Shown: positions 40,096 through 64,000 of the stretch, piece by piece | How positions within the stretch are numbered: position 1 is the first letter of the stretch | Layout of the letters: each line of letters opens with the position of its first letter | Assembly (NCBI GenBank): GCA_958295675.1 | Contig: OY282360.1 | Location: 358,394-422,393, forward strand | Direction of reading: 5' to 3' | DNA length: 64,000 nucleotides | Source of the DNA: Minisyncoccota bacterium | GTDB lineage: Bacteria > Patescibacteriota > Minisyncoccia > Phycocordibacterales > JABAAK01 | Notes under the pieces: model-generated | Database searches by the model: none | Seen by the model: only the letters and a program-made list of their open reading frames with translations | What the model was told of the DNA's origin: nothing | Position numbers and translations under genes: made by a program

Positions 40096-40179
40096 AATTA
40101 TAGTTAAAAATGGTACCTTGTTTGGTAGGAAAGGATTTCCCTTTCTGTTCATTTCAAACACACCAAAAGGAGGTGTTTT

Positions 40180-42762: not shown

Positions 42763-42863
42763 TTTATTTTTAAATAACTTGAAAATATAGTTAAAAAATA
42801 GTACATTGTTTGTTAGAAGGGTTTCCCTTTTTGTTCACTTCAAACACACCAAAAGGAGATTTT

Positions 42864-43904: not shown

Positions 43905-43937
43905 TGGACGATAAGGTTTCTCCCTGAGTCGTCAGAA

Positions 43938-43960
43938 CCCCAAACATATAGTGTTTGGGG
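43938..43960. terminator. bidirectional hairpin terminator element, copy 12
   Basis: ccccaaacatatagtgtttgggg. Confidence 0.5.
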
Positions 43961-44065
43961 TTTGTTTTTAAACAATTTGAAAACATAGTTAAAAAAAATG
44001 GTATATTATTTGTTGGAAAGATTCCCCTTTCTGTTTATTTCAAACACACCAAAAGGAGGTGTTTT

Positions 44066-45265
44066 GTGGATCCACACATGTCTCGGCTCCGTAGGAATAT
44101 ACAGCACGTTGATGATAATTTAGATCTCAGCAATCTCACCTCCGCGAAAGGACTCACGCTACCTGAAGAGATTGTTGGTGATCTGAATCTCAGCGGTCTT
44201 GTCTCCGCTGAGGGACTCACCCTGCCGAGGAAGATTGGTGGTGATCTGCGGCTCAACGGTCTCACCTCCGCTGAAGGACTCACGCTACCTGAAGAGATTG
44301 GCGGTGATCTGAATCTCATCGGTCTCACCTCCGCTGAAGGACTTACGCTACCTGAAGAGATTGGTGGTGGTCTGAATTTCAGCAATCTCACCTCCGCTGA
44401 GGGACTCACCCTGCCAAGGAAGATTGGTAGTCATCTGCGGCTCGACGATCTCAAGTCCGCTGAGGGACTTACACTCCCTGAAGAGATTGGTAGTGATCTG
44501 CTTCTCAGCAGACTCACCTCCGCGAAAGGACTCACCCTGCCGAGGAAGATTGGCCGTAATCTGTGGCTCAACGGTCTCACTTCCGCTGAGGGACTCACGC
44601 TACCTGAAGAGATTGGTGGTCATCTGGTTCTGAGCGGTCTCACTTCCGCGAAAGAACTCATCCTGCCGAGGAAGATTGGTGGTAAACTGGATCTCAGCGG
44701 TCTCACTTCCGCTGAAGAACTCACGCTACCTGAAGAGATTGGTGGTGATCTGTTGCTCAACGGTCTCACCTCCGCTGAGGGACTCACCCTGCCAAGGAAG
44801 ATTGGTGGTTCTCTGTGGCTCAACGGTCTTACCTCTGCGAAAGAACTCACCCTGCCGAGGAAGATTGGTGGTGGTCTGTATCTCCGCGATCTCACCTCTA
44901 CTGAAGGACTCACGCTACCTGAAGAGATTGGTAGCAGTTTGTTTCTCAGCGGTCTCACCTCCGCTGAAGAACTCACGCTACCTGAAGAGATTGGTGGTGC
45001 TCTGGATCTCAGCGGTCTCACCTCCGCGAAAGGACTCACCCTGCCGAGGAAGATTGGTGGTGATCTGCGGCTCAGCGGACTCACCTCCGCGAAAGGACTC
45101 ACGCTACCTGAAGAGATTGGCCGTGATCTGTGGCTCAGAGGTCTCACCTCCACTGAAGGACTCACGCTACCTGAAGAGATTGGCCGTAATCTGGTTCTCA
45201 GCAGTTTCACCTCCGCGAAAGGACTCACCCTGCCGAGGAAGAGAGGAAGATTGGTGGTTTTCTGA
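44066..45265 (+). CDS. family-A 22-aa tandem-repeat protein (about 17 repeats)
   Basis: GTG after AGGAGG. The first ~350 nt (from the terminator through the start) are near-identical to the 38126-38420 region. Confidence 0.65.
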   Translation: MDPHMSRLRRNIQHVDDNLDLSNLTSAKGLTLPEEIVGDLNLSGLVSAEGLTLPRKIGGDLRLNGLTSAEGLTLPEEIGGDLNLIGLTSAEGLTLPEEIGGGLNFSNLTSAEGLTLPRKIGSHLRLDDLKSAEGLTLPEEIGSDLLLSRLTSAKGLTLPRKIGRNLWLNGLTSAEGLTLPEEIGGHLVLSGLTSAKELILPRKIGGKLDLSGLTSAEELTLPEEIGGDLLLNGLTSAEGLTLPRKIGGSLWLNGLTSAKELTLPRKIGGGLYLRDLTSTEGLTLPEEIGSSLFLSGLTSAEELTLPEEIGGALDLSGLTSAKGLTLPRKIGGDLRLSGLTSAKGLTLPEEIGRDLWLRGLTSTEGLTLPEEIGRNLVLSSFTSAKGLTLPRKRGRLVVF

Positions 45266-46246: not shown

Positions 46247-46618
46247 CTATTTCCTGTTGTAATCATCCTCGTAGCGGATAATATCATTTTCACGAGGTTT
46301 GCCGAGCGCGACTTCCAATACAACACCATCGGTCACGCCGGACAGACGGTGCTTTTCTCCCTGCTGTATATGGCAGGTCTCACCGGCAGATAGTACAGTT
46401 GCTTTCCCGCCTTTCAATGCCCGAACGGTTCCCTGCAATACCAACCAGAATTCTTCACGATCCGCATGGCTCTGCAGACTGGTTTGCTCACCTTTGGTGA
46501 CGAATAGTTTTTTTACCCAGTAATAATCGCGTTTTTCCATGATCTCATATCCGCCCCACGGTCTGGTAACTTTTGTATTTTTCTTTGTGGTCTTTTTCAT
46601 ACGCGAATCAGCGCACAT
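46247..46618 (-). CDS. cupin-domain protein (mannose-6-phosphate isomerase type II-like cupin)
   Basis: RPWGGYE...SLQSHADREEFWLVLQG...ETCHIQQGEKHRL. Confidence 0.5.
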   Translation of the reverse strand: MCADSRMKKTTKKNTKVTRPWGGYEIMEKRDYYWVKKLFVTKGEQTSLQSHADREEFWLVLQGTVRALKGGKATVLSAGETCHIQQGEKHRLSGVTDGVVLEVALGKPRENDIIRYEDDYNRK

Positions 46619-48527
46619 GCAGCGCAGTATACATGTCTTTCAATGATATTTTCGCGACATTGATAACCTGATCCGCGCCACCGTAATATGTCAGTATTGT
46701 ATCATCTAGAATTACACTGCCGCAAGGAAAGACAACATTCGGGATTTCTCCGACTTTTTCATATTCTTCTTCGGGTTCAAGCAGGGGTCCGTCTGTTCTG
46801 CCGATAATGTGAGTTGGATCTTTCAAATCCATCATTACCGCACCGACACGGTAAATATGGTCCTCTTTTGAGACACCATGATATAGCAACACCCACCCTT
46901 TCGGTGTCCGCATGGGTGGTGATGCGATACCGACTTTCTCATTATCCCAATATTCCCGTCGCGCCCGCATCCAGCGATATTCATCTATCCAGCGGGAATC
47001 GTCAAAATGAAGTGTATCAGTAAACGCAATATCAATCTCACCGGCTATTCGGTGAAAGATAAGATATTTACCGTTTACTTTTTCAGGGAACAGACACGCA
47101 TCTTTATCATCCAATCCAGGCGGACTGATCAGTACGGGATCTGACCACTTATCCCACCGGCGATTCAGGAATGATTCTAACGGTATTGAGGTCAATGCCA
47201 CTCGAGGTACATTTATACCGTCAAAGGCGGTATAGAGCATGTAGAGCGTGTTGCCTATCACGGTTGTTCTCGCGTCTTCACAGCCGGAATTACCGCTGCC
47301 TTTCTTTTGTTCAAACTCAGCGCGCGGGGTGTAAATCGGTTCGCTCAGGCGTTCAGCGACGGTGATACCGTCATTACTCACCGCATAGCCAAATACGGAA
47401 GTACCGTCCATAGATTGCGCGCGATACACAATATGTACCTTACCCTCAGCGTAAAATGCGGCAGGATTAAAGGTTGTACGGTCTTCCCACGGATGTTCGG
47501 ATATTGGTTCAATAATAGGATCTTTATTACAACGCTCCATTTTCACAAAATCTTCTTCCGGTTTTTTCATGCGAATAAGCAAGTCCGCGAGCGGTATGGT
47601 AGCCGCATTACAAGTGGTATCAGTTGCACCGTAGAAAATATGAATATTCTTTCGTTCCCGCAGTGCGCCGGACGGAAAGATAACATTCGGCACCATGCCG
47701 TACAGTTCATTGTATGCGTCCGGCATCATAATAGGTCCGTAGGTACGGTCAATAATCTTTTTCGGGTTATTCCGGTCAAGAATCACAGCTTCAATGCCGA
47801 ATAGTACATCTTCCTTTCCGTAGTGATTAATGTGCGAGTAAATCAGCAGCCACCCTCTGTCAATCAGCACAGGAGGTGCGCCGATCTCAATATGGTCATC
47901 CTCTTCCCTTTTCAGGTTAATGGTATGCGTGTCTATGTCTTTGTACCAGGCCCACCAATGATCTGTGTTCCACATTTGCTCCGGTTCGTCAAAATAAATA
48001 ATGCCGGTTTTTGACGGCGGTTGATCAGTATCCACGCTTAAAATTGCCGCCATGCGACCTTGTATTTTTTTCGGAAAAAGTGTCATGGCTTTCGCGTTAA
48101 ACGGTGTTACTAAATGTTTTTCATCAACAGTTTTTAAATTTTTTGAGAGAGCGACAGCAACTTTTATTCCCGGCGCGCTGAACGGATAGGTGGAAAGCGC
48201 GGTATAAAAAATATAGTGCATGCCGTCCAGTTTAGTAACCCGCGGATCCTCGCAGCCGAATCGCTCCCACTGGTGTTCAGGAACGATGAATTGTTTCGGG
48301 TTGGAATAATGGAAACCGTCCAAACTCGCCGCATGTCCGATAGTTGAAAAAGAAAGGCGTTCCCGGGCAAGATCATCGTACTGCTCCAGCGATAACGCGC
48401 GGAAAAACAAATGTGTACGCAGCCCCGCCCGTATCGGACAGCCATTAAATGTCGCCAGGGCTTGCCATGCGTATCTGGAATCCGGCGAGAGTATAGGATT
48501 GTGTTTGTAACGGGAGACAGTGAACAT
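46608..48527 (-). CDS. tandem two-domain GH130-family (beta-mannoside phosphorylase-like) protein
   Basis: Two copies of the NP..SP...W......FNP / GCEDPR / YTA..DG pattern. Confidence 0.55.
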   Translation of the reverse strand: MFTVSRYKHNPILSPDSRYAWQALATFNGCPIRAGLRTHLFFRALSLEQYDDLARERLSFSTIGHAASLDGFHYSNPKQFIVPEHQWERFGCEDPRVTKLDGMHYIFYTALSTYPFSAPGIKVAVALSKNLKTVDEKHLVTPFNAKAMTLFPKKIQGRMAAILSVDTDQPPSKTGIIYFDEPEQMWNTDHWWAWYKDIDTHTINLKREEDDHIEIGAPPVLIDRGWLLIYSHINHYGKEDVLFGIEAVILDRNNPKKIIDRTYGPIMMPDAYNELYGMVPNVIFPSGALRERKNIHIFYGATDTTCNAATIPLADLLIRMKKPEEDFVKMERCNKDPIIEPISEHPWEDRTTFNPAAFYAEGKVHIVYRAQSMDGTSVFGYAVSNDGITVAERLSEPIYTPRAEFEQKKGSGNSGCEDARTTVIGNTLYMLYTAFDGINVPRVALTSIPLESFLNRRWDKWSDPVLISPPGLDDKDACLFPEKVNGKYLIFHRIAGEIDIAFTDTLHFDDSRWIDEYRWMRARREYWDNEKVGIASPPMRTPKGWVLLYHGVSKEDHIYRVGAVMMDLKDPTHIIGRTDGPLLEPEEEYEKVGEIPNVVFPCGSVILDDTILTYYGGADQVINVAKISLKDMYTALHVR

Positions 48528-48532
48528 ACATG

Positions 48533-49615
48533 CTATTTCCTTTTGAAACAGTTGCCAATAGCACGAAGAATATTTCTTCGCATAGAGGTAGCGGCAACAG
48601 CACCACTCTCTAATTCACTGAGAAAAGTAGAAAGATTAGCATACGCGACACAGACAAAACTGTCCGCTCCGCCGTAATACAGTAGTAAACGATCATCCTT
48701 AACAACCGCCCCGGATGCGTACACCACTCCATTTTTATAGCCCTCAATTTCACACATATCTTCCGGTCTTATAACCGGCTTATCAGAACGGTGCAATACC
48801 TTTGTCGGATCTTCAATATCCAAAAGCATTGCCCCAATTTTATAATGTGACATGTTACCGTGATTCATCGCATGGTAAAAGAGCAACCAACCGCTGTCAG
48901 TTTTAATCGGCGGCGGTCCCACACCGCGCGTATATGAATCCCAGCGTTCTGACGGTTCGCCTGGTGTGTAGACACTTTGTATATACGCTCCGTCAGCAAA
49001 GTCAAGATTATCCAAATATTCAATTGAGAGTGGACTCAGCGAATGACAGATTGCGTATTTGCCCTGTATTTTTTCAGGGAACAAAACCCAATTTTTATGC
49101 ACCTCGCCCGGGGGAGACATAAACCTCGGTCGTTTCCACATGTGCCATCGCTTGGCGCGAAAGTCATCTGTTGATATGGAAGAAATCGCCATGCGCAAAC
49201 CATCCGAACAGGATGTGTATGTCAGGTATATGGTGTCCTCGTCCTCCATGTGTACCAGTCGCGGGTCTTCACAGCCGACAAAACTACCCCCGGATCGCAT
49301 TGAGTACACGGCATACCGCACATCTCCGCTCATTTCACGATACGCGGGTTTTTCCGGGCAATCATCTATTTGGAAACCGTCAGGAGAACTCGCGTATCCG
49401 AAACGGGATACACCGTCAGCACCGATAGCCCGATACAAAAGGTGCACTCTGTCATCCAATAGAACTGCCGCCGGGTTGAAAGTTTGCCAAGAGCGCCAGT
49501 CAACACTATTGTCCGGAGACATGATAGGGTTTTTGGAGGAGCGGGAAACACTATCAAAGGTTTTTTCCCTTTGTTTCTTTGTTTTTTTTCTGGTAAAAAA
49601 AGAGAATAACTTCAT
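48533..49615 (-). CDS. GH130-family glycoside phosphorylase-like protein
   Basis: KNPIMSPDNSVDWRSWQTFNPAA...GCEDPRLV...YTSCSDG. Start set at MKLFSFF to avoid overlapping the tRNA. Confidence 0.55.
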   Translation of the reverse strand: MKLFSFFTRKKTKKQREKTFDSVSRSSKNPIMSPDNSVDWRSWQTFNPAAVLLDDRVHLLYRAIGADGVSRFGYASSPDGFQIDDCPEKPAYREMSGDVRYAVYSMRSGGSFVGCEDPRLVHMEDEDTIYLTYTSCSDGLRMAISSISTDDFRAKRWHMWKRPRFMSPPGEVHKNWVLFPEKIQGKYAICHSLSPLSIEYLDNLDFADGAYIQSVYTPGEPSERWDSYTRGVGPPPIKTDSGWLLFYHAMNHGNMSHYKIGAMLLDIEDPTKVLHRSDKPVIRPEDMCEIEGYKNGVVYASGAVVKDDRLLLYYGGADSFVCVAYANLSTFLSELESGAVAATSMRRNILRAIGNCFKRK

Positions 49616-49730
49616 TATTAATATAAAACTAAATAGGATAGTATAAAATACTAAACATGTATAGTATACAAGAGAAAATAACAATTTAAAGATATACACA
49701 TAAAACAACGAGTGTGGTATGGTACTCACA

Positions 49731-51327: not shown

Positions 51328-52190
51328 TTACCTAAATTGAACCTGATCAGGATACTGTTTCTTCAGTTCTTCTTTCTCGTTGTCTGGCAGTGCTTGACTT
51401 GCAAATATAGAGTTTCCAATTTTTATAGGCCAGTTGGTGATACCTTGAGTGGATGTGAGTCTATTAAGGTACAGATTATCACCAATCTCTTTCGGCATAG
51501 TGATCTCAGTATCTTCAGTATCTATGGATGTGAGACTGATAAAATTCAGACTACCACCAACCACCTCCGGCATAGTGAATTTAGTATCTATGGATGTGAT
51601 TCTCCTGAGATCCAGACCACCAACTCCTTCGGCATGGTAATCTCAGTATCTATAGATGTGAGATTGCCGAGAGCCAGAGTACCGCCAACCTCCTCCGGCA
51701 GCGTGAGTCCCTCAGCGGAGGTGAGATCACCGAGATCCAAGTCACCATAATGATACCGTATAGTACCGGAAAGCGCCTCTTCTTCAGTCAAAGAAATACG
51801 ATTGGAAGTGGTGCCAAACGCAAGCGCGAGATCCTGTTTCTTCTCTTCATCGCTTCTCCATCTTTTCATCATCTCTCTTCGTCTTTCTTCTTCCTCATAA
51901 TTCCTACTTTTCAAGTGCTGACCTATGCCATACAACACCCAGTATTCCCATTTCGTCAGGTTCTTCTTGTCCTCCATCTTCCGCTCTATATCGTCCAGAC
52001 GCTCATTAAACGGCTGTTTGTACAATACCACCACATCACGCAATTCTTCCGCAAGGTTATCAAACTTTCTAACTGTTTCCTTTACCGCATCAGATTCCAT
52101 TCCTTCTTTGACAAGCACAGAGAGACACAATTCTCGCAATCCGTCCAATACTTTCAATTGTTTCTGTAGTTCTTCGCATATATCCGCCAT
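51328..52190 (-). pseudogene. family-B repeat-protein gene disrupted by partial duplication/frameshift
   Basis: N-terminal ORF 51588..52211 (MADICEELQKQL...) and C-terminal ORF 51328..51573 (...ITNWPIKIG...KKQYPDQVQFR) are in different frames. The IDTEITMPKE segment is duplicated at the junction. Confidence 0.5.
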
Positions 52191-52280
52191 GCTGACGGTA
52201 GTGTACCCCATATATCAAATGCCGTACTCTTTCTTGTGTGAAGATGTTTTTTAGTTTTAATTGTATTCCATTTCATTATT

Positions 52281-53321
52281 TTATCCATAATGAACCTGAC
52301 CCGGATACCGTTTCTCCAGCTCTTCTCTCTCGTTGTCTGGCAATGCTTTGTTTGCATATATAACACCTCCAATCTTTGATGGCCAGTAAGTGATACCTTG
52401 GATAGTGTTAAGACCATATATATCTAAACCATTACCAATCTCTTCAGGTAGCGTGAGTCCTTTCGCGGAGGTGAGACCTCTGAGATCCAGATGACCTCCG
52501 ATTTTTTTTGGCAGTCTGAGTCCTTCAACGAAGGTGAGACTACTGAGATGTAGACTACCATTAATCTCTTCTGGCAGGGTAAATCCCTCAGCGGAGGTAA
52601 GATTGTCAAGCCACAGGCTACCACCAATATTCCTCGGCAAAGTGAGTCCCTTAGCGGAACTGAGACCGCCGAGATCTAGATGACCACCAATCTCCCTCGG
52701 CAGGATGAGTCCTTCAGCGGAGGTGAGTCTACTGAGATGTATACTACCACCAATATTCCTCGGCAAAGTGAGTCCCTTAGCGGAGGTGAGACTACTGAGA
52801 TGTAGACTACCACTAATCTCTTCTGGCAGAGTGAGTCCCTCAGCGAAAGTGATACCGTCAAGCCACAAATCACTACCAATCTCCCTCGGTAGGATGAGTT
52901 TCTCAGCGGACTTGAGACCGCCGAGATCCAGATGACCACCAATCTTCCTCGGCAAAGTGAGTCCCTTAGCGGAGGTGAGTCTGCCGAGATGTAGACTGCC
53001 ACTAATCTCTTCCGGCAGGGTGAATCCCTCAGCGGAAGTGAGACCGTCGAGCCACAGACTGCCGTTATGATACCGTATTTTTCCAGAAAGTGCTTCTTCT
53101 TCATTCACGGAAATACGATCAGGTGTGGTGTCAAACGCGCGCGCGAGATCCTGTTTCTTTTCTTCATCACTTCTCCTGTTCTCTGGCAAAACAAGATCTT
53201 GACCTATATTCTCTGGCAAAACAAGATCTATATCAGCATTTGGTTCATCATGTTCTGTTTTGGGTTTTCTGTATTTTCCGTCTAAAGGACCTGATTCCTT
53301 CATATGTGTATAATTTACCAT
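52281..53321 (-). CDS. family-B protein, N-terminally truncated variant (unique 45-aa N-terminus, about 11 repeats, conserved C-terminal module)
   Basis: ...RRSDEEKKQDLARAFDTTPDRISVNEEEALSGKIRYH then 22-aa repeats, ending GITYWPSKIGGVIYANKALPDNEREELEKRYPGQVHYG. Confidence 0.55.
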   Translation of the reverse strand: MVNYTHMKESGPLDGKYRKPKTEHDEPNADIDLVLPENIGQDLVLPENRRSDEEKKQDLARAFDTTPDRISVNEEEALSGKIRYHNGSLWLDGLTSAEGFTLPEEISGSLHLGRLTSAKGLTLPRKIGGHLDLGGLKSAEKLILPREIGSDLWLDGITFAEGLTLPEEISGSLHLSSLTSAKGLTLPRNIGGSIHLSRLTSAEGLILPREIGGHLDLGGLSSAKGLTLPRNIGGSLWLDNLTSAEGFTLPEEINGSLHLSSLTFVEGLRLPKKIGGHLDLRGLTSAKGLTLPEEIGNGLDIYGLNTIQGITYWPSKIGGVIYANKALPDNEREELEKRYPGQVHYG

Positions 53322-53370
53322 ACATATATATGGTAGATACGAATGTGGAAAAATTGATTATATCTATAGT

Positions 53371-54093
53371 TTACACATATTGAACCTGATCAGGATACTG
53401 TTTCTTCAGTTCTTCTTTCTCGTTGTCTGGCAGTGCTTGACTTACAATTATCTCGTGTCTAATTTTTATAGGCCAGTTGGTGATACCTTGAGTGGATGTG
53501 AGACCGCTGAGAACCAGACCACCACCAATCTTTCTCGGCAACTCAAGCCCTTCCGCGGAGATGAGAGCGGCGAGAAGCAGATGACCACCAATCTCTTCCG
53601 GCAATGTAACTCCTTTTGCGGAGGCGGTATCTTTAAGATATAATTCATCGTAATGATATCGTATGTTACCGGAAAGTGCTTCTTCTTCGGTCACGGAAAT
53701 ACGGTTAGGTGTGGTGTCAAATTCAATTGCGAGATCCTGTTTCTTCTCTTCATCGCTTCTCCATTTTTCTACAATTTCTTTTCGTCTTTTATCTTCTTCA
53801 TATTTAAGACGGCCCGGATACCAATCCACACCATACAACAGACGACATTCCCGTCTATCAAGTGGTTTCTTGTCCTCCATTTTCCGCTCTATATCGTCCA
53901 GACGCTCATTAAACGGCTGTCTGTAGAATACCGTAGCATCACGCAATTCTTCCGCCAGCGTATCAAACTCCCTAACCGCTTTCTTCGCCGCATCAGATTC
54001 CATTCCTTCTTTGACAAGCACAGAGAGACACGATTCCCGCAATCCGTCCAATACTTTCAGATCTTTCCGCAGTTCTTTGCATATATCTGCCAT
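53371..54093 (-). CDS. family-B protein (N-terminal ~150-aa helical domain + 2-3 repeats + C-terminal module)
   Basis: MADICKELRKDLKVLDGLRESCLSVLVKEGMESDAAKK ... QGITNWPIKI ... KKQYPDQVQYV. Confidence 0.65.
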   Translation of the reverse strand: MADICKELRKDLKVLDGLRESCLSVLVKEGMESDAAKKAVREFDTLAEELRDATVFYRQPFNERLDDIERKMEDKKPLDRRECRLLYGVDWYPGRLKYEEDKRRKEIVEKWRSDEEKKQDLAIEFDTTPNRISVTEEEALSGNIRYHYDELYLKDTASAKGVTLPEEIGGHLLLAALISAEGLELPRKIGGGLVLSGLTSTQGITNWPIKIRHEIIVSQALPDNEKEELKKQYPDQVQYV

Positions 54094-54160
54094 ACTGGAA
54101 AATAGTATACCCTATATACTAAACATTTCCTTTGGTTTGATTGTATTCCATTTCATTATT

Positions 54161-55636
54161 TTATTCATAACGAACCTTGCCCGGATACCGTTTCTCCAGT
54201 GCTGCTTTCTCATTGCCTGGTAGTGCTTCGTTTACATATATAACACCTCCAATCTTTGATGACCAATCAGTGATACCTTGAGTGGATGTGAGACCGTTGA
54301 GAACCAGAGTACCACCAATCTTCCTCGGCAGGATGAGTCCCTCGGCGGAAGTGAGACCGCTGAGAACCAGACCACCACCAATCTTCCTCGGCAACTCAAG
54401 CCCTTCCGCGGAGGTGAGACCGCTGAGAAGTAGACTACCACCAATCTCTTCAGGTAGTGTGAGTTCTTCAGCGGAGGTGAGACCTCTGAGAACCAGATCA
54501 CCACCAATCTCTTCAGGTAGCGTGAGTCCTTTCGCGGAGGTGAGACCGCTGAGAACCAGATCACCACCAATCTCTTCAGGTAGCGTGAGTCCTTTCGCGG
54601 AGGTGAGACCGCTGAGAACCAGATCACCACCAATCTCTTCAGGTAGTGTGAGTTCTTCAGCGGAGGTGAGACCTCTGAGAACCAGATCACCAGCAATCTC
54701 TTCAGGTAGCGTGAGTTCTTCAGCGGAGGTGAGACCGTTGAGAACCAGAGTACCACCAATCTTCCTCGGCAGGATGAGTCCCTCGGCGGAAGTGAGACCG
54801 CTGAGATTCAGACCGCCACCAACCTCTTCAGGTAGCGTGAGTCCCTCAGCGGAAGTGAGACCGCTGAGAAACAGACCACCAATCTCTTCAGGTAGCGTGA
54901 GTTTTTTCGCGGAGGTGAGACCGTCGAGCCACAGATGACCACCAATCTTCCTCGGCAGGGTGAGTCCTTTCGCGGAGGTGAGACCGTTGAGATACAGACC
55001 ACCACCAATCTTCCTCGGCAGGGTGAGTCCTTTCGCGGAGGTGAGACCGCTGAGAAGTAGACTACCACCAATCTCTTCAGGTAGTGTGAGTTCTTCAGCG
55101 GAGGTGAGACCGATGAGAACCAGATCACCACCAATCTCTTCCGGCAATGTAACTCCTTTTGCGGAGGCGGTATCTTTAAGATATAATTCATCGTAATGAT
55201 ATCGTATGTTACCGGAAAGTGCTTCTTCTTCGGTCACGGAAATACGGTTAGGTGTGGTGTCAAATTCAATTGCGAGATCCTGTTTCTTCTCTTCATCGCT
55301 TCTCCATTTTTCTACAATTTCTTTTCGTCTTTTATCTTCTTCATATTTAAGACGGCCCGGATACCAATCCACACCATACAACAGACGACATTCCCGTCTA
55401 TCAAGTGGTTTCTTGTCCTCCATTTTCCGCTCTATATCGTCCAGACGCTCATTAAACGGCTGTCTGTAGAATACCGTAGCATCACGCAATTCTTCCGCCA
55501 GCGTATCAAACTCCCTAACCGCTTTCTTCGCCGCATCAGATTCCATTCCTTCTTTGACAAGCAGAGAGATACAAAATTGTCGCCATGCATCCAGCTCTTT
55601 CAAATCTTTCAGCAGTTCTTTGCATATACTCGCCAT
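54161..55636 (-). CDS. family-B protein (N-domain + about 14 repeats + C-terminal module)
   Basis: Start at MASICKELL. N-domain 95% identical to 53371..54093. Confidence 0.65.
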   Translation of the reverse strand: MASICKELLKDLKELDAWRQFCISLLVKEGMESDAAKKAVREFDTLAEELRDATVFYRQPFNERLDDIERKMEDKKPLDRRECRLLYGVDWYPGRLKYEEDKRRKEIVEKWRSDEEKKQDLAIEFDTTPNRISVTEEEALSGNIRYHYDELYLKDTASAKGVTLPEEIGGDLVLIGLTSAEELTLPEEIGGSLLLSGLTSAKGLTLPRKIGGGLYLNGLTSAKGLTLPRKIGGHLWLDGLTSAKKLTLPEEIGGLFLSGLTSAEGLTLPEEVGGGLNLSGLTSAEGLILPRKIGGTLVLNGLTSAEELTLPEEIAGDLVLRGLTSAEELTLPEEIGGDLVLSGLTSAKGLTLPEEIGGDLVLSGLTSAKGLTLPEEIGGDLVLRGLTSAEELTLPEEIGGSLLLSGLTSAEGLELPRKIGGGLVLSGLTSAEGLILPRKIGGTLVLNGLTSTQGITDWSSKIGGVIYVNEALPGNEKAALEKRYPGKVRYE

Positions 55637-55662
55637 ACTGGAAAATAGTATAACACACAGGT

Positions 55663-56130
55663 TCAAGCATATGCATCTACAACTTCTGCTAATACTTTTT
55701 CCGCGTGTCCATCTGCTTTCACATTTCTCCAGTGTTTTTGGACTTTGCCATCAGGATTAATTAGCACTGTACTTCTTACAATACCCATATATGTCTTTCC
55801 ATAGTTATTCTTTTCTCGCCATGCGTCATATGCTTCAAGCATCTTACCCTCTTCATCACTCAATAAATCTATTTTAAATGCATATTTCTCATGAAATTTT
55901 TTATGCGATTCCACAGAATCCTTGGAAACACCGAACACAACAGTATTCTTTTTTGCAAAATCATCATGTAACGCAGAGAATTGTTGTCCTTCAACAGTAC
56001 ACCCCGGCGTATCATCTTTTGGATAGAAGTAAAGCACAACATGTTTGCCGGCAAAATCCGTTAAAGAAACTTCTTTACCATCCTGGTTTAGTAGGTGAAA
56101 TGTCGGTGCTTTTCTCCCTTCTTCAATCAT
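55663..56130 (-). CDS. bcp: peroxiredoxin Bcp (thiol peroxidase)
   Basis: FYPKDDTPGCT active-site motif, 155 aa. Confidence 0.8.
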   Translation of the reverse strand: MIEEGRKAPTFHLLNQDGKEVSLTDFAGKHVVLYFYPKDDTPGCTVEGQQFSALHDDFAKKNTVVFGVSKDSVESHKKFHEKYAFKIDLLSDEEGKMLEAYDAWREKNNYGKTYMGIVRSTVLINPDGKVQKHWRNVKADGHAEKVLAEVVDAYA

Positions 56131-56193
56131 AATGATAGTATAACATGAATAGAAAAAAGTTGTGCATGAACACTATATAAAAATCTTCTCTAC

Positions 56194-57186
56194 ATGGTCT
56201 TATTATGTGGTATAGTACTGGTGATGGAGAAGTATGCAGTACGCTATAGGTGGGCGTTTGTTCCGGCGGTTATTATCCTGCTGATGTGGTTGCCCGGTAT
56301 TAATTTCTCAGAACCCACAGGATTTGAGCATCTCTTCCGCTCGGTCGCGTGGATATTGGCTGCCTCTTGCGCGTACATCTATATATTAAACAAAATTGAG
56401 ACACTACGGCATCAGAACATATTCCTCGTACTCTCACTGATCACATTGCCTTTTGTTATTTTCGGGATATTGCTCGGAGGATTAATCGGAGCCACTGGCA
56501 TTATCATCAATTCCGGTATTCCATTGCTCATCCTCCTTATCCTCGGTGGCGGAACGCTCTACAAACAGGAAGGCGTGCGCACGAGAGCAATTGTTTCAAT
56601 ACTAATTTTTATAGCATTTTTCATCTCCATGATTTGGTTTTTCGTCTCTTCAATCCAGAAAGAGAATGTAATGCGGTGTACAGATCTTTATTTCGGCACA
56701 TGGAACGAAACAGAGAAACGGTGTGATGAGCCGCCGGATCAGGCACTGAGAAATGCTATATATTTCTCGTATGATATCACTTTGGAGGACGGACAGATAT
56801 ACTTTGACCGGCCGAAAGCGGATGAAGAAAAGCAGCATAGCAAATGGGGTGATTGGACAGCACTGCTGAGTGTAAGCGGCACAGATGCCGGTGATGTGCG
56901 GTTCCATACCGATCTCGCCCTGACACGCGATGACCTCATATTCGTTCCTCTTACATCAGAAATCACAGGAAACATATATCTCCTTTCTCTGAAGAAAGCA
57001 GCGTCTCCCGTCGGTCTTTTCGGGCATTCAAAACAGGCGGATATCGCGCAGATTGACGGTTTACAAATTACTGAACTGGCGTTTGATAATGACGGCGCGC
57101 TCAATGTGACGGTAAGGCATGCGGAAGAAGGTGTAAAAACTTTGGTATTCAGCATTTCAAATGCAGGCAATCTTATAGCAAAATAA
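56194..57186 (+). CDS. polytopic membrane protein with C-terminal extracytoplasmic domain
   Basis: At least 5 TM helices in the N-terminal 170 aa. Hypothetical. Confidence 0.45.
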   Translation: MVLLCGIVLVMEKYAVRYRWAFVPAVIILLMWLPGINFSEPTGFEHLFRSVAWILAASCAYIYILNKIETLRHQNIFLVLSLITLPFVIFGILLGGLIGATGIIINSGIPLLILLILGGGTLYKQEGVRTRAIVSILIFIAFFISMIWFFVSSIQKENVMRCTDLYFGTWNETEKRCDEPPDQALRNAIYFSYDITLEDGQIYFDRPKADEEKQHSKWGDWTALLSVSGTDAGDVRFHTDLALTRDDLIFVPLTSEITGNIYLLSLKKAASPVGLFGHSKQADIAQIDGLQITELAFDNDGALNVTVRHAEEGVKTLVFSISNAGNLIAK

Positions 57187-57381
57187 TACTATTACCCCTA
57201 CTCTCGTGGAAGTTCAAACACGCTCCCACTACTTATAGATACTTGCGAAAAGGCATACATTTTCTTATATACTCAATAAAAAAATATAGTATAGGGACAT
57301 TGCTTTATTTTTATAATTATAGTATAATAGATAATAGAGCAGTAAAACACCGAAACCCGTTGTTCAAGGAGAACACAACAC

Positions 57382-57981
57382 ATGAAAATTGCCCTTTTTC
57401 CACTGATGTTGCTTCTGGTACTCCCGAGCTATGCTCAGGAGGAGATCGTCAATACCTGTGTGATTTCCGTCACTCAGGAAGAGGCGCAGGCAATCATCCT
57501 CAACCCACAGCACATCGCCGAGGAGTTCAAACGGCACGAAGGCGATTTGTTCTGTCAGGAAGAAGAGGTTGTCCATTTGCTTTTGGAAAAAGTAGATGGT
57601 GGTGAGCAACCCTTCTTCCGACAGGTAGCTGAACAGTATGCCGACGGAAAAGTAGGCGGACACATCACCGCAAAAGCGCTAAGGAGGGTAGGTGATGACG
57701 ACACCTTTTTCAAGAGGATGTACGAAACCGCAACGCAGTATTCTGCGCGAACGGAAGCATTCCTGCGAATCAATGACTTGGCATATGTCAAGGAAAGGAT
57801 TGAGAGACAGGCAGCAAAGGCAGAGGAAGTCAGTTTTGGTCAGGCAAGCCCTGCGAGCACCTTTCTCGAAGCTCGTGGCAGCGAGGTGAAACGGGCGTAC
57901 CCTGAATTCATCAACACTCTCGCTGAGTCGGCACAAAACTCTTACATCAAGAGAGAGGCAGCTCGGCTCCGGCAGCAGTAG
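57382..57981 (+). CDS. secreted helical protein (signal peptide)
   Basis: MKIALFPLMLLLVLPSYAQEE signal. Hypothetical. Confidence 0.5.
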   Translation: MKIALFPLMLLLVLPSYAQEEIVNTCVISVTQEEAQAIILNPQHIAEEFKRHEGDLFCQEEEVVHLLLEKVDGGEQPFFRQVAEQYADGKVGGHITAKALRRVGDDDTFFKRMYETATQYSARTEAFLRINDLAYVKERIERQAAKAEEVSFGQASPASTFLEARGSEVKRAYPEFINTLAESAQNSYIKREAARLRQQ

Positions 57982-58044
57982 ACCTATAACCACCATGGAC
58001 ATCGTTCATGGTGGTTACTTTTTTAAAAGGATATTAAACGAATG

Positions 58045-58356
58045 CTATAAATTAAAGATAAGGTAAATAATAGCAATAAGGACTGAGAGAGCAAGCAAGA
58101 GTGCGTCTTCTTTCTTGTCCCACTTATCAAACCGCTTTCCTTTCTTCAAAAACGCCATAAGTGAAAAAACGATGGCCAAAAGAGCAAACAGAAGGAAAAC
58201 AGAGTTTTGTATTTTCAGGAATACGGATACGGCTGATGTAAATATGCCGTTCGCCGCATGCCATGAAAAAATCCAAAGCACCAAAGTAATTATCGGAGCT
58301 GTCAGAAAGAGTGCCGCAGCAAGGGAGGTTGTTTTAACTTTTATTTCTTTTAACAT
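58045..58356 (-). CDS. small membrane protein (3 TM)
   Basis: 103 aa, hydrophobic. Confidence 0.35.
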   Translation of the reverse strand: MLKEIKVKTTSLAAALFLTAPIITLVLWIFSWHAANGIFTSAVSVFLKIQNSVFLLFALLAIVFSLMAFLKKGKRFDKWDKKEDALLLALSVLIAIIYLIFNL

Positions 58357-58400
58357 ATGTTTTTATATTTCGGTAATATACAAAAAGTATAGCATATAAA

Positions 58401-59074
58401 TCAATCAAAAAGATGATCATGATGCTCACGAATGGAATAGTAATCATCCTGTGTAATGATAACATGATCAGCAAATGATATTCCGAGTATATCACCTGCC
58501 TCAACGAGTCGCTTGGTAACAGCGAGATCTGCATCCGACGGTTCACACACATTTGAAGGATGATTGTGCGCACCGATAATACACGCTGCGCTCCGCTCAA
58601 CCGCCTTGCTGAATACTTCTCGCGGATGCACAATGCTGGCATTTATCGTTCCGATACTCACCACTTCCCTATCAATTTCTCTGTTACGAGAATCAAGATA
58701 CAAAATGATAAAATGCTCTTTTTTACTGGCGCGCAGGTCAGCTAATGCTTCCCACACCCGTTCCGGTTTTATATCATCAAGGTTTTCCCACCCTCCGCGC
58801 ATACGAACGGCAAGTTCAACACAGGAAAGTATCTTGCTAATTTTCGCGTCACCGAGACCGTGAATATTCCGCAAATCTTCATGTGTTGCTCGGTAATTTC
58901 GGCGTTCTAAAACACTCCATATCTCATCGGCAAGGCGTTTTACATCTTTTTCTTTCGTGCCGCTTCCCAGCAGTATTTGCATCAGCTCCTGACTTGTCAG
59001 TTGCACAGCACCGCGATTCTTCAACTTTTCACGAGGTCTGTCCTCAATAGGAATATCTCTGAAATGTTTTTTCA
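58401..59074 (-). CDS. radC: RadC-like JAB/MPN domain protein
   Basis: HNHPSNVCEPSDADLAVTKRL...DHVII signature, N-terminal HhH. Start at MKKHFRD. Confidence 0.75.
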
Positions 59075-59144
59075 TCTGCGTGCAGTATAACATCAATAAT
59101 AGAAACAAAGATAAAGATATTTTTTACGGTACACTACTTTCAGT

Positions 59145-60653
59145 ATGGCGGATATATGCGAAGAACTACAGAAACAACTGCATGAGTTAGATGTTCTGCG
59201 GAAATCGTGTGGCTCTTTGCTTCTCAGAGAAGGAATGGAATCCGATGCGGCAAAGAAAACGATTGAGGAGTTTGATACACTGGCGGAACACTTGCGTGAT
59301 GAGGTCGCGTTTTACAGACAACCGTACAGTGAACATTTGGATATACTTGAAAAAAAGATAGACGACAAGAAACCGCTTGACAGACGGGAATGCGGTCTGT
59401 TGTACGGTGTGGATCGGTATCCAGGAAATGTCAGTGATGCTGAAAAAGTAAAACGATACACTCTAATAAAGAAAAGAACCGGTGCAGAGAAAAAAGAAGA
59501 TCTCAAACTTGCGCTTGAGGAACTCACCCCGCCGAGAGAGATTGATGGTGATTTGGATCTTGGTGATCTCACCTCCGCTGAGGGACTCATCCTGCCGGAA
59601 GAGATTGATGGTGATCTGTGGCTCAATGCTCTCACCTCCGCTGAGGGACTCACCCTGCCGAGGAAGATTGGTGACAGTTTGTTTCTCAACGGTCTCAAGT
59701 CCGCTGAGGGAATCACCTGGCCGGAAGAGATTGGTGATGATCTGCGGCTCAACAGACTCACCTCCGCTGAGGGACTCACCCTGCCGAGGAAGATTGTTGG
59801 TACTCTGATTCTCAACGGTCTCACCTCCGCGAAAGGACTCACCCTACCGGAAGAGATTGGTGGTAGACTGTATCTCAGCGGTCTCAAGTCCGCTGAGGGA
59901 CTCACCCTGCCGAGGAAGATTGGTGACAGTTTGTTTCTCAACGGTCTCAAGTCCGCTGAAGAACTCACACTACCAGAAGAGATTGGTGATGATCTGTGGC
60001 TCAGCGGTCTCACCTCCGCGAAAGGACTCACCCTGCCAGAAGAGATTGGTGGTTATCTGGTTCTCAGCGGTCTCACTTCCGCTGAAGAACTTACCCTGCC
60101 GAGGAAGATTGGTGGCGGTCTGGATCTCGGCGGTCTCACTTCCGCTGAAGAACTTACCCTGCCGAGGAAGATTGGTGGTGGTCTGTATCTCAGAGGTCTC
60201 ACCTCCGCGAAAGAACTCACGCTACCTGAAGAGATTGCTTATGATCTGGAACTCAACGGTCTCACCTCCGCGAAAGGACTCACCCTGCCAGAAGAGATTG
60301 GTGGTTATCTGGTTCTCAGCGGTCTCAAGTCCGCTGAAGAACTTACCCTGCCGAGGAAGATTGGTGACAGTTTGTTTCTCAACGGTCTCAAGTCCGCTGA
60401 AGAACTCACACTACCAGAAGAGATTGGTGACAGTCTGTGGCTCAGCGGTCTCACCTCCGCGAAAGGACTCACACTACCGGAAGAGATTGGTGGTAGACTG
60501 TATCTCAGCGGTCTCACATCCACTCAAGATATCACCAACTGGCCTGTCAAAATTGGAGGAATTGTGAAAATGAACACAGTACTACCGAAAAACGAGAAAG
60601 TAGAAATGGAGAAACGGTATCCTGGTCAGGTTAAGTATGTGGATTATTCCTAA
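59145..60653 (+). CDS. family-B protein (N-domain + about 15 repeats + C-terminal module)
   Basis: MADICEELQKQLHELDVLRKSCGSLLLREGMESDAAKK ... QDITNWPVKIGG ... EKRYPGQVKYVDYS. No SD; ATG lies about 13 nt after a tatact-like box. Confidence 0.7.
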   Translation: MADICEELQKQLHELDVLRKSCGSLLLREGMESDAAKKTIEEFDTLAEHLRDEVAFYRQPYSEHLDILEKKIDDKKPLDRRECGLLYGVDRYPGNVSDAEKVKRYTLIKKRTGAEKKEDLKLALEELTPPREIDGDLDLGDLTSAEGLILPEEIDGDLWLNALTSAEGLTLPRKIGDSLFLNGLKSAEGITWPEEIGDDLRLNRLTSAEGLTLPRKIVGTLILNGLTSAKGLTLPEEIGGRLYLSGLKSAEGLTLPRKIGDSLFLNGLKSAEELTLPEEIGDDLWLSGLTSAKGLTLPEEIGGYLVLSGLTSAEELTLPRKIGGGLDLGGLTSAEELTLPRKIGGGLYLRGLTSAKELTLPEEIAYDLELNGLTSAKGLTLPEEIGGYLVLSGLKSAEELTLPRKIGDSLFLNGLKSAEELTLPEEIGDSLWLSGLTSAKGLTLPEEIGGRLYLSGLTSTQDITNWPVKIGGIVKMNTVLPKNEKVEMEKRYPGQVKYVDYS

Positions 60654-60707
60654 TCATCAATAATAGAAACAAAGATAAAGATATTTTTATAGTATACTAC
60701 CCTCGGT

Positions 60708-61655
60708 ATGACAGATATATGCAAAGAGCTGCGGAAAGATCTGAAAGAACTGGACGCATTGCGGGAATCGTGTGTCTCCGCGCTTGTCAGAGAAGGAATG
60801 GAATCCGATGCGGCAAAGAAAACGATTGAGGAGTTTGATACGCTGGCGGAACACTTGCGTGATGTGGTGGCATTGTACAAACAGCCGTTCGGTGAGTATC
60901 TTGATATGCTTGAAAAAAAGATAGACGACAAGAAACCGCTTGACAGGCGGGAATGCGGTCTGTTGTACGGTGTGAATCGGTATCCAGGAAATGTCAGTGG
61001 TGCTGAAAAAGTAAAACGATACATTCTCATAGAAAAAAGAACCGGTGCAGAGAAAAAAGAAGATCTCAAACTTGCACTTGAGGAACTCACGCCGCCGAGA
61101 GAGATTGATGGTGATTTGAATCTTGGTGATCTCACCTCCGCTGAGGGACTCATCTTGCCGGAGAAAATTGGTGGTGATATGTACCTCCACAATCTCACCT
61201 CCGCAAAAGAACTCACGCTACCTGAAGAGATTGGTGGTGATCTGTGGCTCAGCGGTCTCACCTCCGCTGAAGAACTCACGCTACCTGAAGAGATTGGTGG
61301 TGATCTGTTTCTCAGCGATCTCACTTCCGCAAAAGAACTCACCCTGCCGAGGAAGATTGGTGGTGATATGTACCTCCACAGTCTCACCTCCGCAAAAGAA
61401 CTCACGCTACCTGAAGAGATTGGTGGTGATCTGTGGCTCAACGGTCTCACCTCCGCAAAAGAACTCACGCTACCTGAAGAGATTGGTGGTGATCTGTGGC
61501 TCGACGGTCTCACCACTATTATAGGTATCAAACACTGGCCATCAAAGACAGGAAGGGCTATGTTTATAAACAAAAAACTACCGCAAGAAGAGAAAAAAGA
61601 ACTGGAGAAACGGTATCCTTATCCTGGTCAGGTTAAGTATGTGGATCATTCCTAA
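60708..61655 (+). CDS. family-B protein (N-domain + about 7 repeats + C-terminal module)
   Basis: MTDICKELRKDLKELDALRESC..., ends KRYPYPGQVKYVDHS. Confidence 0.7.
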   Translation: MTDICKELRKDLKELDALRESCVSALVREGMESDAAKKTIEEFDTLAEHLRDVVALYKQPFGEYLDMLEKKIDDKKPLDRRECGLLYGVNRYPGNVSGAEKVKRYILIEKRTGAEKKEDLKLALEELTPPREIDGDLNLGDLTSAEGLILPEKIGGDMYLHNLTSAKELTLPEEIGGDLWLSGLTSAEELTLPEEIGGDLFLSDLTSAKELTLPRKIGGDMYLHSLTSAKELTLPEEIGGDLWLNGLTSAKELTLPEEIGGDLWLDGLTTIIGIKHWPSKTGRAMFINKKLPQEEKKELEKRYPYPGQVKYVDHS

Positions 61656-61712
61656 TCATCAATAATAGAAACAAAGATAAAGAGATATTTTTTATACTAC
61701 ACTACTCTTTAT

Positions 61713-62564
61713 ATGGCGGATATATGCGAAGAACTACGGAAACAACTGCATGAGTTAAATGTTCTGCGGGAATCATGTGTCTCGGCACTTGTCAGAGAAG
61801 GAATGGAATCCGATGCGGCAAAGAAAACGATTGAGGAGTTTGATACACTGGCGGAAGAATTGCGTGATGCGGTGGCATTGTACAAACAACCGTTTGATAA
61901 GCGTTTAAACGGTATAGAGCGGAAGATAAAGAAGAAAGAGAACCTGACAAAATGGGAATGCTGGGTGTTGTTAAACGGTATAGAGCGGAAGATAAAGAAG
62001 AAAGAGAACCTGACAAAATGGGAATGTCGGGTGCTGTATGGTATAGATTGGTATTCGGAAGGTGATGAGGGTAAGGAGTATTTTAGACGGAAAAATATAG
62101 AAGAAAGGAGGAGTGACAAAGAAAAGAAACAGGATCTTGCGCTTGCTTTTGATACCACTCCTGACCGTATTTCCGTGACTGAAAAAGAAGCACTTTCCGG
62201 TAACATACAGTACCATTATAATATTCTGAATCTCAATAGGTACACCTCAACAGAAGGACTCATCCTGCCGGAAGAAATTGGAGGTCATTTAGATCTCAAT
62301 AGATTTACCTTTATGGAAGGGTTTACCTTGCCAAAAAAGGTTGGAGGTAATCTGTATCTCCGCAGACTTATTTCCGCAAAAAGATTTATGCTGCCAGAGA
62401 GAATCAGAGGAGGTTTATATCTCCCCAGGCTCACCACAATTCAAGGCATCACAAGATGGCCGTCAAAACTGCTCATATTAGAAATAAACAGAGCATTACC
62501 CCAGGAAGAAAAAGAAGAACTGAAGAAACGGTATCCGGGTAAGATTAGTTATGTGGATTCCTAA
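61713..62564 (+). CDS. family-B protein, divergent repeats, internal 66-bp tandem duplication
   Basis: MADICEELRKQLHELNVLRESC.... The 61908-61973 segment is repeated at 61974-62039 (LNGIERKIKKKENLTKWEC x2). Confidence 0.65.
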   Translation: MADICEELRKQLHELNVLRESCVSALVREGMESDAAKKTIEEFDTLAEELRDAVALYKQPFDKRLNGIERKIKKKENLTKWECWVLLNGIERKIKKKENLTKWECRVLYGIDWYSEGDEGKEYFRRKNIEERRSDKEKKQDLALAFDTTPDRISVTEKEALSGNIQYHYNILNLNRYTSTEGLILPEEIGGHLDLNRFTFMEGFTLPKKVGGNLYLRRLISAKRFMLPERIRGGLYLPRLTTIQGITRWPSKLLILEINRALPQEEKEELKKRYPGKISYVDS

Positions 62565-63598
62565 TCATCAATAATAGATTCCGCTTGATCAAAGAAAGGC
62601 AGTGCAGATTCAGTTTGCCTCTCCAGCCACTCTTCATCTGTTACCAGTGTCCCTTGAAAGAATAGGACACAAGTGATTAAGAGTATGAATGTGCCAATAA
62701 TCATAGCAACCTGAAGCAATACCGGTGTTTTCTCTGTTTCCTGTGGTCTTTGACCAACAAGAAGATCGTTATACAACGCATATCCGTAGCAGAAACAAAA
62801 CGGCGCGAAGAGGATGATTGTCATGAACAGAATCAGAAAGAAAAGAATCGCGCCGATAGCAGGAGAAAATGCTATTAGGATAAGAGAGAGCATCAGGAGA
62901 CCGAACGCGATCGCAAAAACAATGATGCTGAGAAGAATGAGTCGGAACAACACACTGAACCATCTGTCGCGCACACAATAATAACTCTTTTTCAACGCAT
63001 TCATGGCAGTGTCCCGACCGGCGGCAAGTGCGAACGGAGCCTGAGAAATATATATGCTTGAAACAATGAAAAACAGGAATGAAACGATAGTGATCAGGAA
63101 GAATATCGGTCGGAATGCCGCTGAATATTCAAACATATTAAGTAGCGTACCGGCAATCTCAGGAATCAAACTAACAGCCCATACAATCCAGGTTAAAATA
63201 AGCAGTGCGATTAGCGAGAGAGATCTTCGTAATGATATCTTGAAAGATTCAAAAACACCGGCATTGTTTCCGGCAATTGCGGTAAAACAAGAGATAAGAA
63301 ACAACGCAAAAAAACCATTTTCAGCATATTCAATAATGTGAAAAAATTTCTCAACGGTGATAATTGAATCGGAAAAAACACGCGACATGATAGATGTCAG
63401 TGTTCCGAGTGTAAGATTTAGAGCAATCCATGCTATACTGACAAGAAAAACTACGCCGATGTATTTCCAAAAGTGCTGTTTAAGTAATCCGACAGCAGAT
63501 TTAAAGAGAGCAGAAATGCCGGAAAGTCCTTGGTGCGAAGTTTCTGGTTCTTCCTGCGAAGTTGTAGTTCCGGAAGAAGCGATATTTGTAGCATCCAT
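62561..63598 (-). CDS. polytopic membrane protein (8-10 TM), hypothetical
   Basis: Start MDATNIASSG. Highly hydrophobic. Flanked by direct ~190-bp copies of a family-B 3' end. Confidence 0.5.
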   Translation of the reverse strand: MDATNIASSGTTTSQEEPETSHQGLSGISALFKSAVGLLKQHFWKYIGVVFLVSIAWIALNLTLGTLTSIMSRVFSDSIITVEKFFHIIEYAENGFFALFLISCFTAIAGNNAGVFESFKISLRRSLSLIALLILTWIVWAVSLIPEIAGTLLNMFEYSAAFRPIFFLITIVSFLFFIVSSIYISQAPFALAAGRDTAMNALKKSYYCVRDRWFSVLFRLILLSIIVFAIAFGLLMLSLILIAFSPAIGAILFFLILFMTIILFAPFCFCYGYALYNDLLVGQRPQETEKTPVLLQVAMIIGTFILLITCVLFFQGTLVTDEEWLERQTESALPFFDQAESIIDD

Positions 63599-63734
63599 AA
63601 TGCAAAAGTATAGAAATAAATGATAATACAGCACATGACCATATCACCGCACATAGTATACCACACATGTTTTTATAACAAAGAACCGTTAAAAAGACAG
63701 GCATGGTATACTGAATTACTTATACAGGTATTCG

Positions 63735-63928
63735 CACTTATTTCCACAAAAAGATTTATGCTGCCAGAGAGAATCAGAGGAGATCTATATCTCTCCAGGC
63801 TCACCACAATTCAAGGCATCACAAGATGGCCGTCAAAACTGCTCATATTAGAAATAAACAGAGCATTACCCCAGAAAGAAAAAGAAGAACTGGAGAAACG
63901 GTATCCGGGCAAGGTTCATTATGGATAA
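63735..63928 (+). pseudogene. 3' fragment of a family-B gene (duplicate of 62375-62564)
   Basis: ...KRFMLPERIRGDLYLSRLTTIQGITRWPSKLLILEINRALPQKEKEELEKRYPGKVHYG. No N-terminal part. Confidence 0.45.
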
Positions 63929-64000
63929 AATAATGAAATGGAATACAATTAAAACTAAAAAACATCTTCACACAAGAAAGAGTACGGCATTTGATATATG

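Follow-up and report, generated by a model that had tools for sequence, protein, structure and literature searches.

Introduction

The closest known kind of protein to those described here is the short-repeat bacterial leucine-rich repeat (LRR) protein, represented by YopM, the LRR domains of IpaH, SspH and SlrP, and the Leptospira proteins LIC11098 and LIC12234. Here, we analyse a multigene family of LRR proteins, family B, which is encoded by two opposed gene arrays in a 64,000-nucleotide (nt) stretch of contig OY282360.1 (positions 358,394 to 422,393) from a Minisyncoccota bacterium. This whole stretch is referred to as the window, and all coordinates are counted from its first letter. Family B differs from YopM-type proteins in that its N- and C-terminal domains are new, a type III secretion context is missing and its host belongs to the Patescibacteria; the function of the known LRR effectors must not be transferred to the B proteins. 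The host is a small-genome (~0.72 Mb) Patescibacteria (Parcubacteria) bacterium. The cysteinyl-tRNA synthetase (CysRS) encoded in the window is 60% identical to a protein from Candidatus Kaiserbacteria and about 48% identical to those of Wolfebacteria and Taylorbacteria.

In its layout, the locus resembles two types of described systems. The sap locus of Campylobacter fetus consists of sapCDEF plus multiple copies of sapA/sapB and recombinant chimeras (PMC4943207). Its likeness to the present locus is that a multi-copy family of homologues surrounds a conserved gene block. In the work of Dworkin and Blaser in 1996-97 and of Tu et al. in 2003, opposed sap homologues, whose 5' ends face an invertible segment, are said to recombine via RecA. 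However, the 5' regions of the sap homologues are nearly identical over hundreds of base pairs, while here they are 73-75% identical, and sap has a single promoter on the invertible piece, while here each gene has its own leader. The second type comprises the R64 shufflon with Rci, the vsa genes of Mycoplasma pulmonis with HvsR and the Bacteroides shufflons, which share with this locus clustered opposed paralogues with exchangeable 5' parts. These site-specific systems depend on a recombinase gene next to the locus and on short inverted sites that are conserved, but neither is found here.

An earlier note, made from the letters of the window, described the two arrays as long inverted repeats around a unique core and proposed that they allow inversion of this core and gene conversion between the arms. 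We consider it likely that the locus is instead a recombining LRR multigene family, consisting of two divergent tandem arrays of the lineage-restricted family B, and not a working inversion switch.

Two opposed arrays of family-B genes

The listing of open reading frames (ORFs) and tblastn mapping place B genes on both sides of the core, and both arrays are transcribed away from it. The left arm contains genes L5 to L2 and the right arm R1 to R3 and a fragment, Rf. Protein lengths are given in amino acids (aa).

51328..52211, minus strand: L5, family-B pseudogene, present as ORFs of 207 aa and 81 aa, with an extra upstream ATG that gives an MGYTT leader
52281..53321, minus strand: L4, B gene of 346 aa, without the first ~100 aa (first half) of the N-terminal domain
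53371..54093, minus strand: L3, B gene of 240 aa, two 63-nt units detected, the shortest array among the intact B genes
54161..55636, minus strand: L2, B gene of 491 aa, 13 repeats detected, start 26 nt after the bcp stop
55663..59108, no strand: core, five genes between the arms
55663-56130, minus strand: bcp, core gene (PF00578)
56194-57186, plus strand: core gene for a 330-aa protein, no family match
57382-57981, plus strand: core ORF of 199 aa, no family match
58045-58356, minus strand: core ORF of 103 aa, no family match
58401-59108, minus strand: radC, core gene (PF04002), true start probably near 59075
59145..60653, plus strand: R1, B gene of 502 aa, 15 repeats detected
60708..61655, plus strand: R2, B gene of 315 aa, identical to protein P0001
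61713..62564, plus strand: R3, B gene of 283 aa
62561..63634, minus strand: membrane-type ORF of 357 aa, hydrophobic, unrelated to family B, interrupting the right arm
63736..63928, plus strand: Rf, 3' fragment of a B gene, R3-like to about 63905 and then L4-like
63856..64000, plus strand: left-arm-type patch, reverse complement of 52209-52353, 92.5% identical

This map agrees with the gene content read in the earlier note, which had plus-strand B genes at 59145, 60708 and 61713 followed by a fragment, whose start is here placed at 63736, and minus-strand B genes within 51328-55636, i.e., the frameshifted L5 together with L4, L3 and L2. The 3.4-kb stretch from bcp to radC is indeed unique, being free of repeats from 55663 to 59108. 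A further B gene had been predicted just past 64000, and the last ATG of the window (63998-64000) fits the start of protein P0002 (MGYTTFSM...). The study covers one genome, the window end at 64000 is the end of the readable DNA, and the right arm beyond it is known solely through P0002.

L5 is split by the loss of 1 nt, one missing G (GAGGTTGG to GAGTTGG) at about 51612 (51600-51625), which could mean that the gene was inactivated recently or that the assembly or sequencing is in error. L4 retains the linker, the repeats and the C-terminal domain. The 357-aa ORF at 62561-63634, which probably encodes a membrane protein, is sandwiched between the 3' end of R3 (62366-62553) and a 95% identical copy of this end (63736-63923, 188 nt). 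It looks as if a B gene has been disrupted or partly replaced between 62554 and 63735.

Long ORFs on the opposite strand or in other frames run across the repeat arrays (52400-55200 and 59300-61600), for example a 307-aa ORF at 60650-61573 on the minus strand. They result from the composition of the repeats and are not genes in their own right.

Architecture of the family-B proteins

In the alignment of 11 members, the B proteins consist of an N-terminal domain, a linker, the repeats and a C-terminal domain, in this order. The N-terminal domain (~130-150 aa) is helical and starts with MADICxELRKQL... The linker, RSDEEKKQDL...ISxTEEEALSGxIRYH, is shortened in R1, R2 and P0002. The repeats are 21 residues (63 nt) long and their number varies among the genes, while the C-terminal domain of ~50 aa reads LTSTQGITNWP...EKRYPG. 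In an AlphaFold2 model with a predicted local distance difference test (pLDDT) score of 82, helices at residues 8-131 are followed by a solenoid. The N-terminal domain of R3 contains a 66-nt tandem duplication (61905-62036, 95% identical) that doubles 22 residues (LNGIERKIKKKENLTKWEC.VL).

The 138 repeats found in the window give the consensus LTSA[KE][GE]LTLP[ER][EK]IGGxLxLxG, in which leucine is kept at positions 1, 7, 9, 17 and 19 and isoleucine at position 13, and threonine or serine replaces the usual asparagine or cysteine. As expected for LRRs, which are tandem repeats of 20-30 residues, the leucines are regularly spaced with an LxxLxLxxN/CxL-like core, and the predicted model is a curved solenoid with one short beta-strand per repeat on its concave face. 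Entropy among the 138 repeats reaches 2.5-3.3 bits at positions 16, 18 and 20 only. These are the x residues of the xLxLx strand, and we infer that they form the ligand-binding face.

None of the curated Pfam LRR models (LRR_1, LRR_4, LRR_6, LRR_8 etc.) matches any protein of family B or of the second LRR family in the window, family A, which is described below. The B proteins have no meaningful match to any family in Pfam, NCBIfam or PADLOC; thus, the family defined here is an unannotated one that these searches miss. No sequence-related solved structure was found for the B proteins, and a Foldseek search against PDB was also empty. Their N-terminus is a hydrophilic predicted helix, and no exported or surface protein family was matched in the Pfam and NCBIfam searches. 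Eight proteins of the locus were compared with PADLOC with no match, and the reading of the locus as a defence system was dropped on this ground.

In all six full-length B genes, the ATG is preceded at a distance of 12-17 nt by a conserved GGTAYACTA / TAYACT motif (starts at 52190, 54093 and 55636 on the minus strand and at 59145, 60708 and 61713 on the plus strand), and no Shine-Dalgarno sequence precedes any of them. This combination suggests very short leaders or leaderless transcripts. A scan of the locus for consensus promoters and terminators performed no better than on shuffled sequence.

Similarity between the two arms

A BLAST search of the left arm (51.0-55.7 kb) against the right arm (59.05-64.0 kb) results in 129 minus-strand high-scoring segment pairs. 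The top pair aligns 53816-55167 with 60985-59635 over 1375 nt at 78.6% identity and is collinear over a gene boundary. The similarity is thus not confined to short scattered repeat units, and there are collinear inverted blocks that span gene boundaries; however, the term long inverted repeats exaggerates the likeness of the arms, as the identity between them is just 73-82%. Much of it comes from an off-register lattice among the 63-nt units, with diagonals at 73-82%. Apart from one distal patch, no exact inverted match between the arms is longer than 44 nt, and the matches of 30-44 nt join L2 with R1 and R2.

The right arm is a mirror image of the left one, as claimed in the earlier note, in orientation but not in a gene-for-gene pairing, as N-terminal domains, spacers and, largely, C-terminal domains group by arm. 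Over the first 210 nt of the N-terminal domain the identity is 84-92% among left-arm genes and 80-83% among right-arm genes, compared with 73-81% between the arms. For the 70-nt upstream spacers the corresponding values are 50-60% in the left arm, 74-82% in the right arm and 48-59% between the arms. The downstream spacers fall into types that mostly follow the arm.

In the tree of N-terminal domains the groups are (L5,(L2,L3)) and (R2,(R1,P0002)), with R3 apart, while the tree of C-terminal domains has a different topology. Because the two trees disagree, the B genes are mosaics. L2 and R1, which flank the core, do not pair as closest relatives in the trees.

Recent events are seen inside the arms. 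The N-terminal domains of L3 and L2 contain a 437-nt exact direct repeat (53584-54020 and 55127-55563), which marks a recent duplication or conversion within the arm, and 154 N-terminal residues of R1 and P0002 are identical. The copy of the R3 3' end at Rf is a third such case.

Gene conversion between inverted copies

The gene conversion proposed between the arms is supported by one tract at the distal end of the right arm. The four-way alignment shows that Rf is 95% R3-like to about 63905 and then continues as the 3' tail of L4 and the L4-L5 spacer; this change from R3-type to L4-type falls inside a shared GAGAAACGGTATCCGGG. The earlier note had taken 63906-64000 as the exact reverse complement of 52206-52300. 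The inverted match is real, but its partner is 52209-52303 and there are 2 mismatches; an exact run of 89 nt (52209-52297 and 63912-64000) is ended by the window edge. The window end also matches the region upstream of the L5 start, as had been noted.

Beyond the window, the sequence of P0002 begins with an L5-type leader, MGYTTFSM, and is of R1-type after about 8 codons. L5 and R1 share a 33-nt exact match at MADICEELQKQ, which is the likely second junction of the patch. As about 150 nt of left-arm type lie between flanks of right-arm type, the patch bears the signature of a gene conversion tract and not of an inversion endpoint.

A second exchange involves family A, i.e., five genes on the plus strand (38141-45265) that consist almost entirely of 21-residue LRR repeats, with 10-35 units each, and do not have the N- and C-terminal domains of family B. 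The gene A3 (799 aa) aligns at 41711-42510 on the plus strand to 55167-54356 of L2 on the minus strand over 820 nt with 88.9% identity, a better match than any other long inverted homology of the region, and the two genes share exact inverted matches of 85-91 nt. This A3-like block makes up nearly the whole repeat array of L2 and lies internally, between N- and C-terminal domains of B-type. This implies that whole LRR blocks have been exchanged between families A and B. Since the family-A array is an equal or better inverted partner of the left arm, the picture of two arms is incomplete. Ectopic conversion among inverted arrays is thus real, and not specific to the two B arms.

The family-A region also contains a 478-nt exact direct repeat (38010-38487 and 43824-44301). 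Taken together, the arrays of 21-residue repeats in families A and B cover about 17 kb, or 26% of the window, so that a member of the Patescibacteria with a tiny genome spends about a quarter of these 64 kb on one unannotated LRR module.

The proposed inversion of the core

The remaining claim, that the core at 55.66-59.1 kb inverts, finds no support. In a homology-driven system of the sap type, recombination between the 5' parts of L2 and R1 would flip the segment from bcp to radC and re-pair promoters or 5' halves as a variation switch. L2 on the minus strand and R1 on the plus strand do start beside the core with their 5' ends facing each other, and an inverted homology of 204 nt, 55440-55643 against 59138-59341, lies at the core edges. 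The many in-register 63-nt units would yield in-frame chimeras, and the mosaic genes show that recombination occurs. However, the 204-nt homology is only 75% identical and ends 7 nt upstream of each ATG, the first 210 nt of L2 and R1 are 73% identical, and exact matches are at most 44 nt save for the distal patch. The two facing genes are also not mutual closest relatives, and both inverted exchanges that are seen are internal patches and not breakpoints.

A site-specific mechanism fares no better. When the main ORFs of the 64-kb window were scanned with Pfam, no recombinase family was found; the matches are to housekeeping genes (including aldolase, CysRS, DnaB, RecR, MreB, RmuC, GH130 and, for cell wall and division, the Mur ligase, PBP2, MraW and MraZ) and a family with LRV repeats. 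There are no short conserved inverted sites at the core edges, where the sole inverted repeats are the diverged 5' ends of the genes. The high-identity inverted pair is found only at the distal ends (52.3 and 63.9 kb), so a crossover between the two would invert some 11.6 kb (52.3-63.9 kb) and not the core. Finally, every full-length B gene has its own TAYACT leader, so a flip of the core would not obviously switch genes on or off. We therefore regard an invertible core as unlikely.

The cumulative GC skew is lowest near 56 kb, at the change of strand between the B arrays (54000-58000). A replication origin at the core was considered for this sign change and rejected, as there is no cluster of DnaA boxes at that place and no dnaA in the window. 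The skew probably reflects which strand encodes the purine-rich B genes.

Evolution of the arrays

The comparisons show arrays that evolve mainly by duplication and conversion inside an arm and by change of repeat number, with exchanges between inverted copies being rarer. The observed inverted exchanges are bounded tracts with flanks of a different type, which argues for non-reciprocal conversion rather than an inversion breakpoint. We suggest that the opposite orientation is the by-product of one old inverted duplication or inversion, after which each arm expanded separately. In principle the core could be inverted by homologous recombination, although this should be a rare event, and if it took place in register, L2 and R1 would exchange their 5' halves with nothing turned on or off. 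As the variability sits on the xLxLx strand that is predicted to face the ligand, the B proteins may constitute a diversifying binding repertoire.

Several observations weigh against this explanation. The symmetry of the locus is striking: both arms have their 5' ends towards the core and their largest genes (491 and 502 aa) in the innermost place, and on both sides genes of 'PLDRREC' type lie inside genes of 'NLTKWE' type. There may thus be a functional reason for the head-to-head layout. The exact inverted matches (30-44 nt between L2 and R1 or R2, 85-91 nt between A3 and L2) suffice for occasional recombination of the RecA type, and the clustering within arms could also result from concerted evolution that has erased an original gene-for-gene mirror. 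In addition, the evidence comes from one genome with DNA read to 64000.

A more far-reaching explanation, which we hold to be quite unlikely, would make families A and B the diversifying receptor repertoire of an episymbiotic Patescibacteria cell, which might recognise hosts or sense phages inside the cell. The head-to-head and convergent arrangement of the arrays would then have been selected because recombination reshuffles N-terminal domains and LRR blocks reciprocally, in frame and without loss of copies. If true, this would be a recombinase-free bacterial counterpart of clustered plant resistance (R) genes or of the diversification of variable lymphocyte receptors (VLR) in lampreys.

Programmed variation of the cassette type, comparable to the pseudogene systems of pilS, vls and msp2, is improbable. 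L4, L5 and Rf would here be silent donors copied into expressed B genes, a role that one copy with a frameshift, one without its 5' part and one reduced to a 3' fragment could fill, and both the patchwise, non-reciprocal transfers and the concentration of variability on the predicted binding face would follow. However, the majority of copies are full length and have a start of their own as well as the conserved leader, and the locus has no single site of expression. Only a few copies are defective, each by a single lesion, as ordinary decay or assembly error would give, and the B proteins do not match exported or surface families.

The arms could also be derived from an ancestral palindrome, i.e., a single inverted duplication of a whole multi-gene array whose arms were then kept alike by arm-to-arm conversion. 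This would explain why the order of subtypes from inside to outside ('PLDRREC' inner, 'NLTKWE' outer) is the same and the innermost genes have similar lengths, and one arm-to-arm conversion tract does exist. We still find it very improbable, as comparisons of N-terminal domains, spacers and C-terminal domains reveal no orthologous left-right pairs, the derived linker deletion common to R1, R2 and P0002 is absent from every left-arm gene, and an arm identity of 73-82% is far below the level that active conversion would maintain.

An assembly artefact, in which mis-joined repeats of a metagenome assembly have created an inverted arm or a chimeric junction, would suit a highly repetitive region from an apparently metagenome-derived source with singleton proteins and a 1-nt frameshift in L5 that resembles a sequencing error, but it is extremely improbable. 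The arms are joined to the core and to the flanks, which are both unique, at gene boundaries where the ORFs are intact, and with 20-25% divergence and spacers specific to each arm they are not one sequence in collapsed or duplicated form.

For the recombining multigene family that we favour, the focused variability together with clear signs of ongoing duplication and conversion makes the LRR genes of the window candidates for interaction with a host or phage in a little-known group of organisms. The inverted layout itself is then what multigene-family evolution ordinarily produces, and it adds little as long as no inversion is demonstrated. The family is new and unannotated but of a familiar kind, and its interest is moderate and mainly for the biology of Patescibacteria.

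Homologues in other genomes

A profile of the B N-terminal domain finds 74 proteins at E<=1e-3 among 1.84 billion representatives, 9 of them with E<=1e-10. Most of the 74 matches cover the linker half only and lie within larger proteins. In the distant homologues that share the linker, the N-terminal domains are mostly unannotated, with FNIP, AAA_5 and FGE-sulfatase in single cases, and they offer no clue to the function. Pfam LRR matches are confined to distant homologues (P0077, P0083, P0088 and P0091). One B gene, encoding P0006, is 46% identical and present as a single copy in a housekeeping context (locus L001). No relative was found when patterns from the B alignment were scanned against genome_contigs and JGI metagenome contigs, and a literature search on LRR families in Patescibacteria or the candidate phyla radiation returned nothing relevant.

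Two tandem arrays of the same architecture were found elsewhere. In the Candidatus Campbellbacteria sequence CP064977.1 (locus L003, 9221-20113) there are 11 co-directional tandem paralogues with the same tripartite layout, near-identical N-terminal domains and 5-9 LTSA-type repeat motifs counted per gene, and an ENA contig (locus L002, 6168-8939) carries four co-directional genes. Both arrays share with family B the helical N-terminal domain, an 'ISxTxEEALSG' linker, 21-residue LTSAxGLxLP repeats and a short C-terminal domain, as well as paralogues with near-identical N-terminal domains that differ in repeat number. However, the two arrays are co-directional with 3-nt or overlapping spacers, while in the present locus two arrays point away from a core between them, the paralogues are more diverged and there is exchange with the family-A array. 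Tandem expansion of the B architecture recurs in Parcubacteria, while the opposed layout is found in this genome only, among the loci examined. The array of CP064977.1 is also much more homogeneous, with 3-nt gaps between genes, and is adjoined by an ORF with a faint HNH_5 match.

Other repeat families in the window

The window contains a second repeat family of leucine-rich repeat variant (LRV) type (PF01816) at 26912-32963 on the minus strand and 37277-37777 on the plus strand. It includes a 789-aa member, and a periodic TTATCCTCA motif is seen within the LRV array.

Paralogue pairs of MreB, PBP2 and GH130 and an RmuC gene are located at 16032-17075, 17268-24125, 25081-26499, 34979-36004 and 46608-49729. 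In E. coli, the RmuC family has been linked to the limitation of inversions at inverted repeats. One of the MreB paralogues has an N-terminal extension of ~140 aa.

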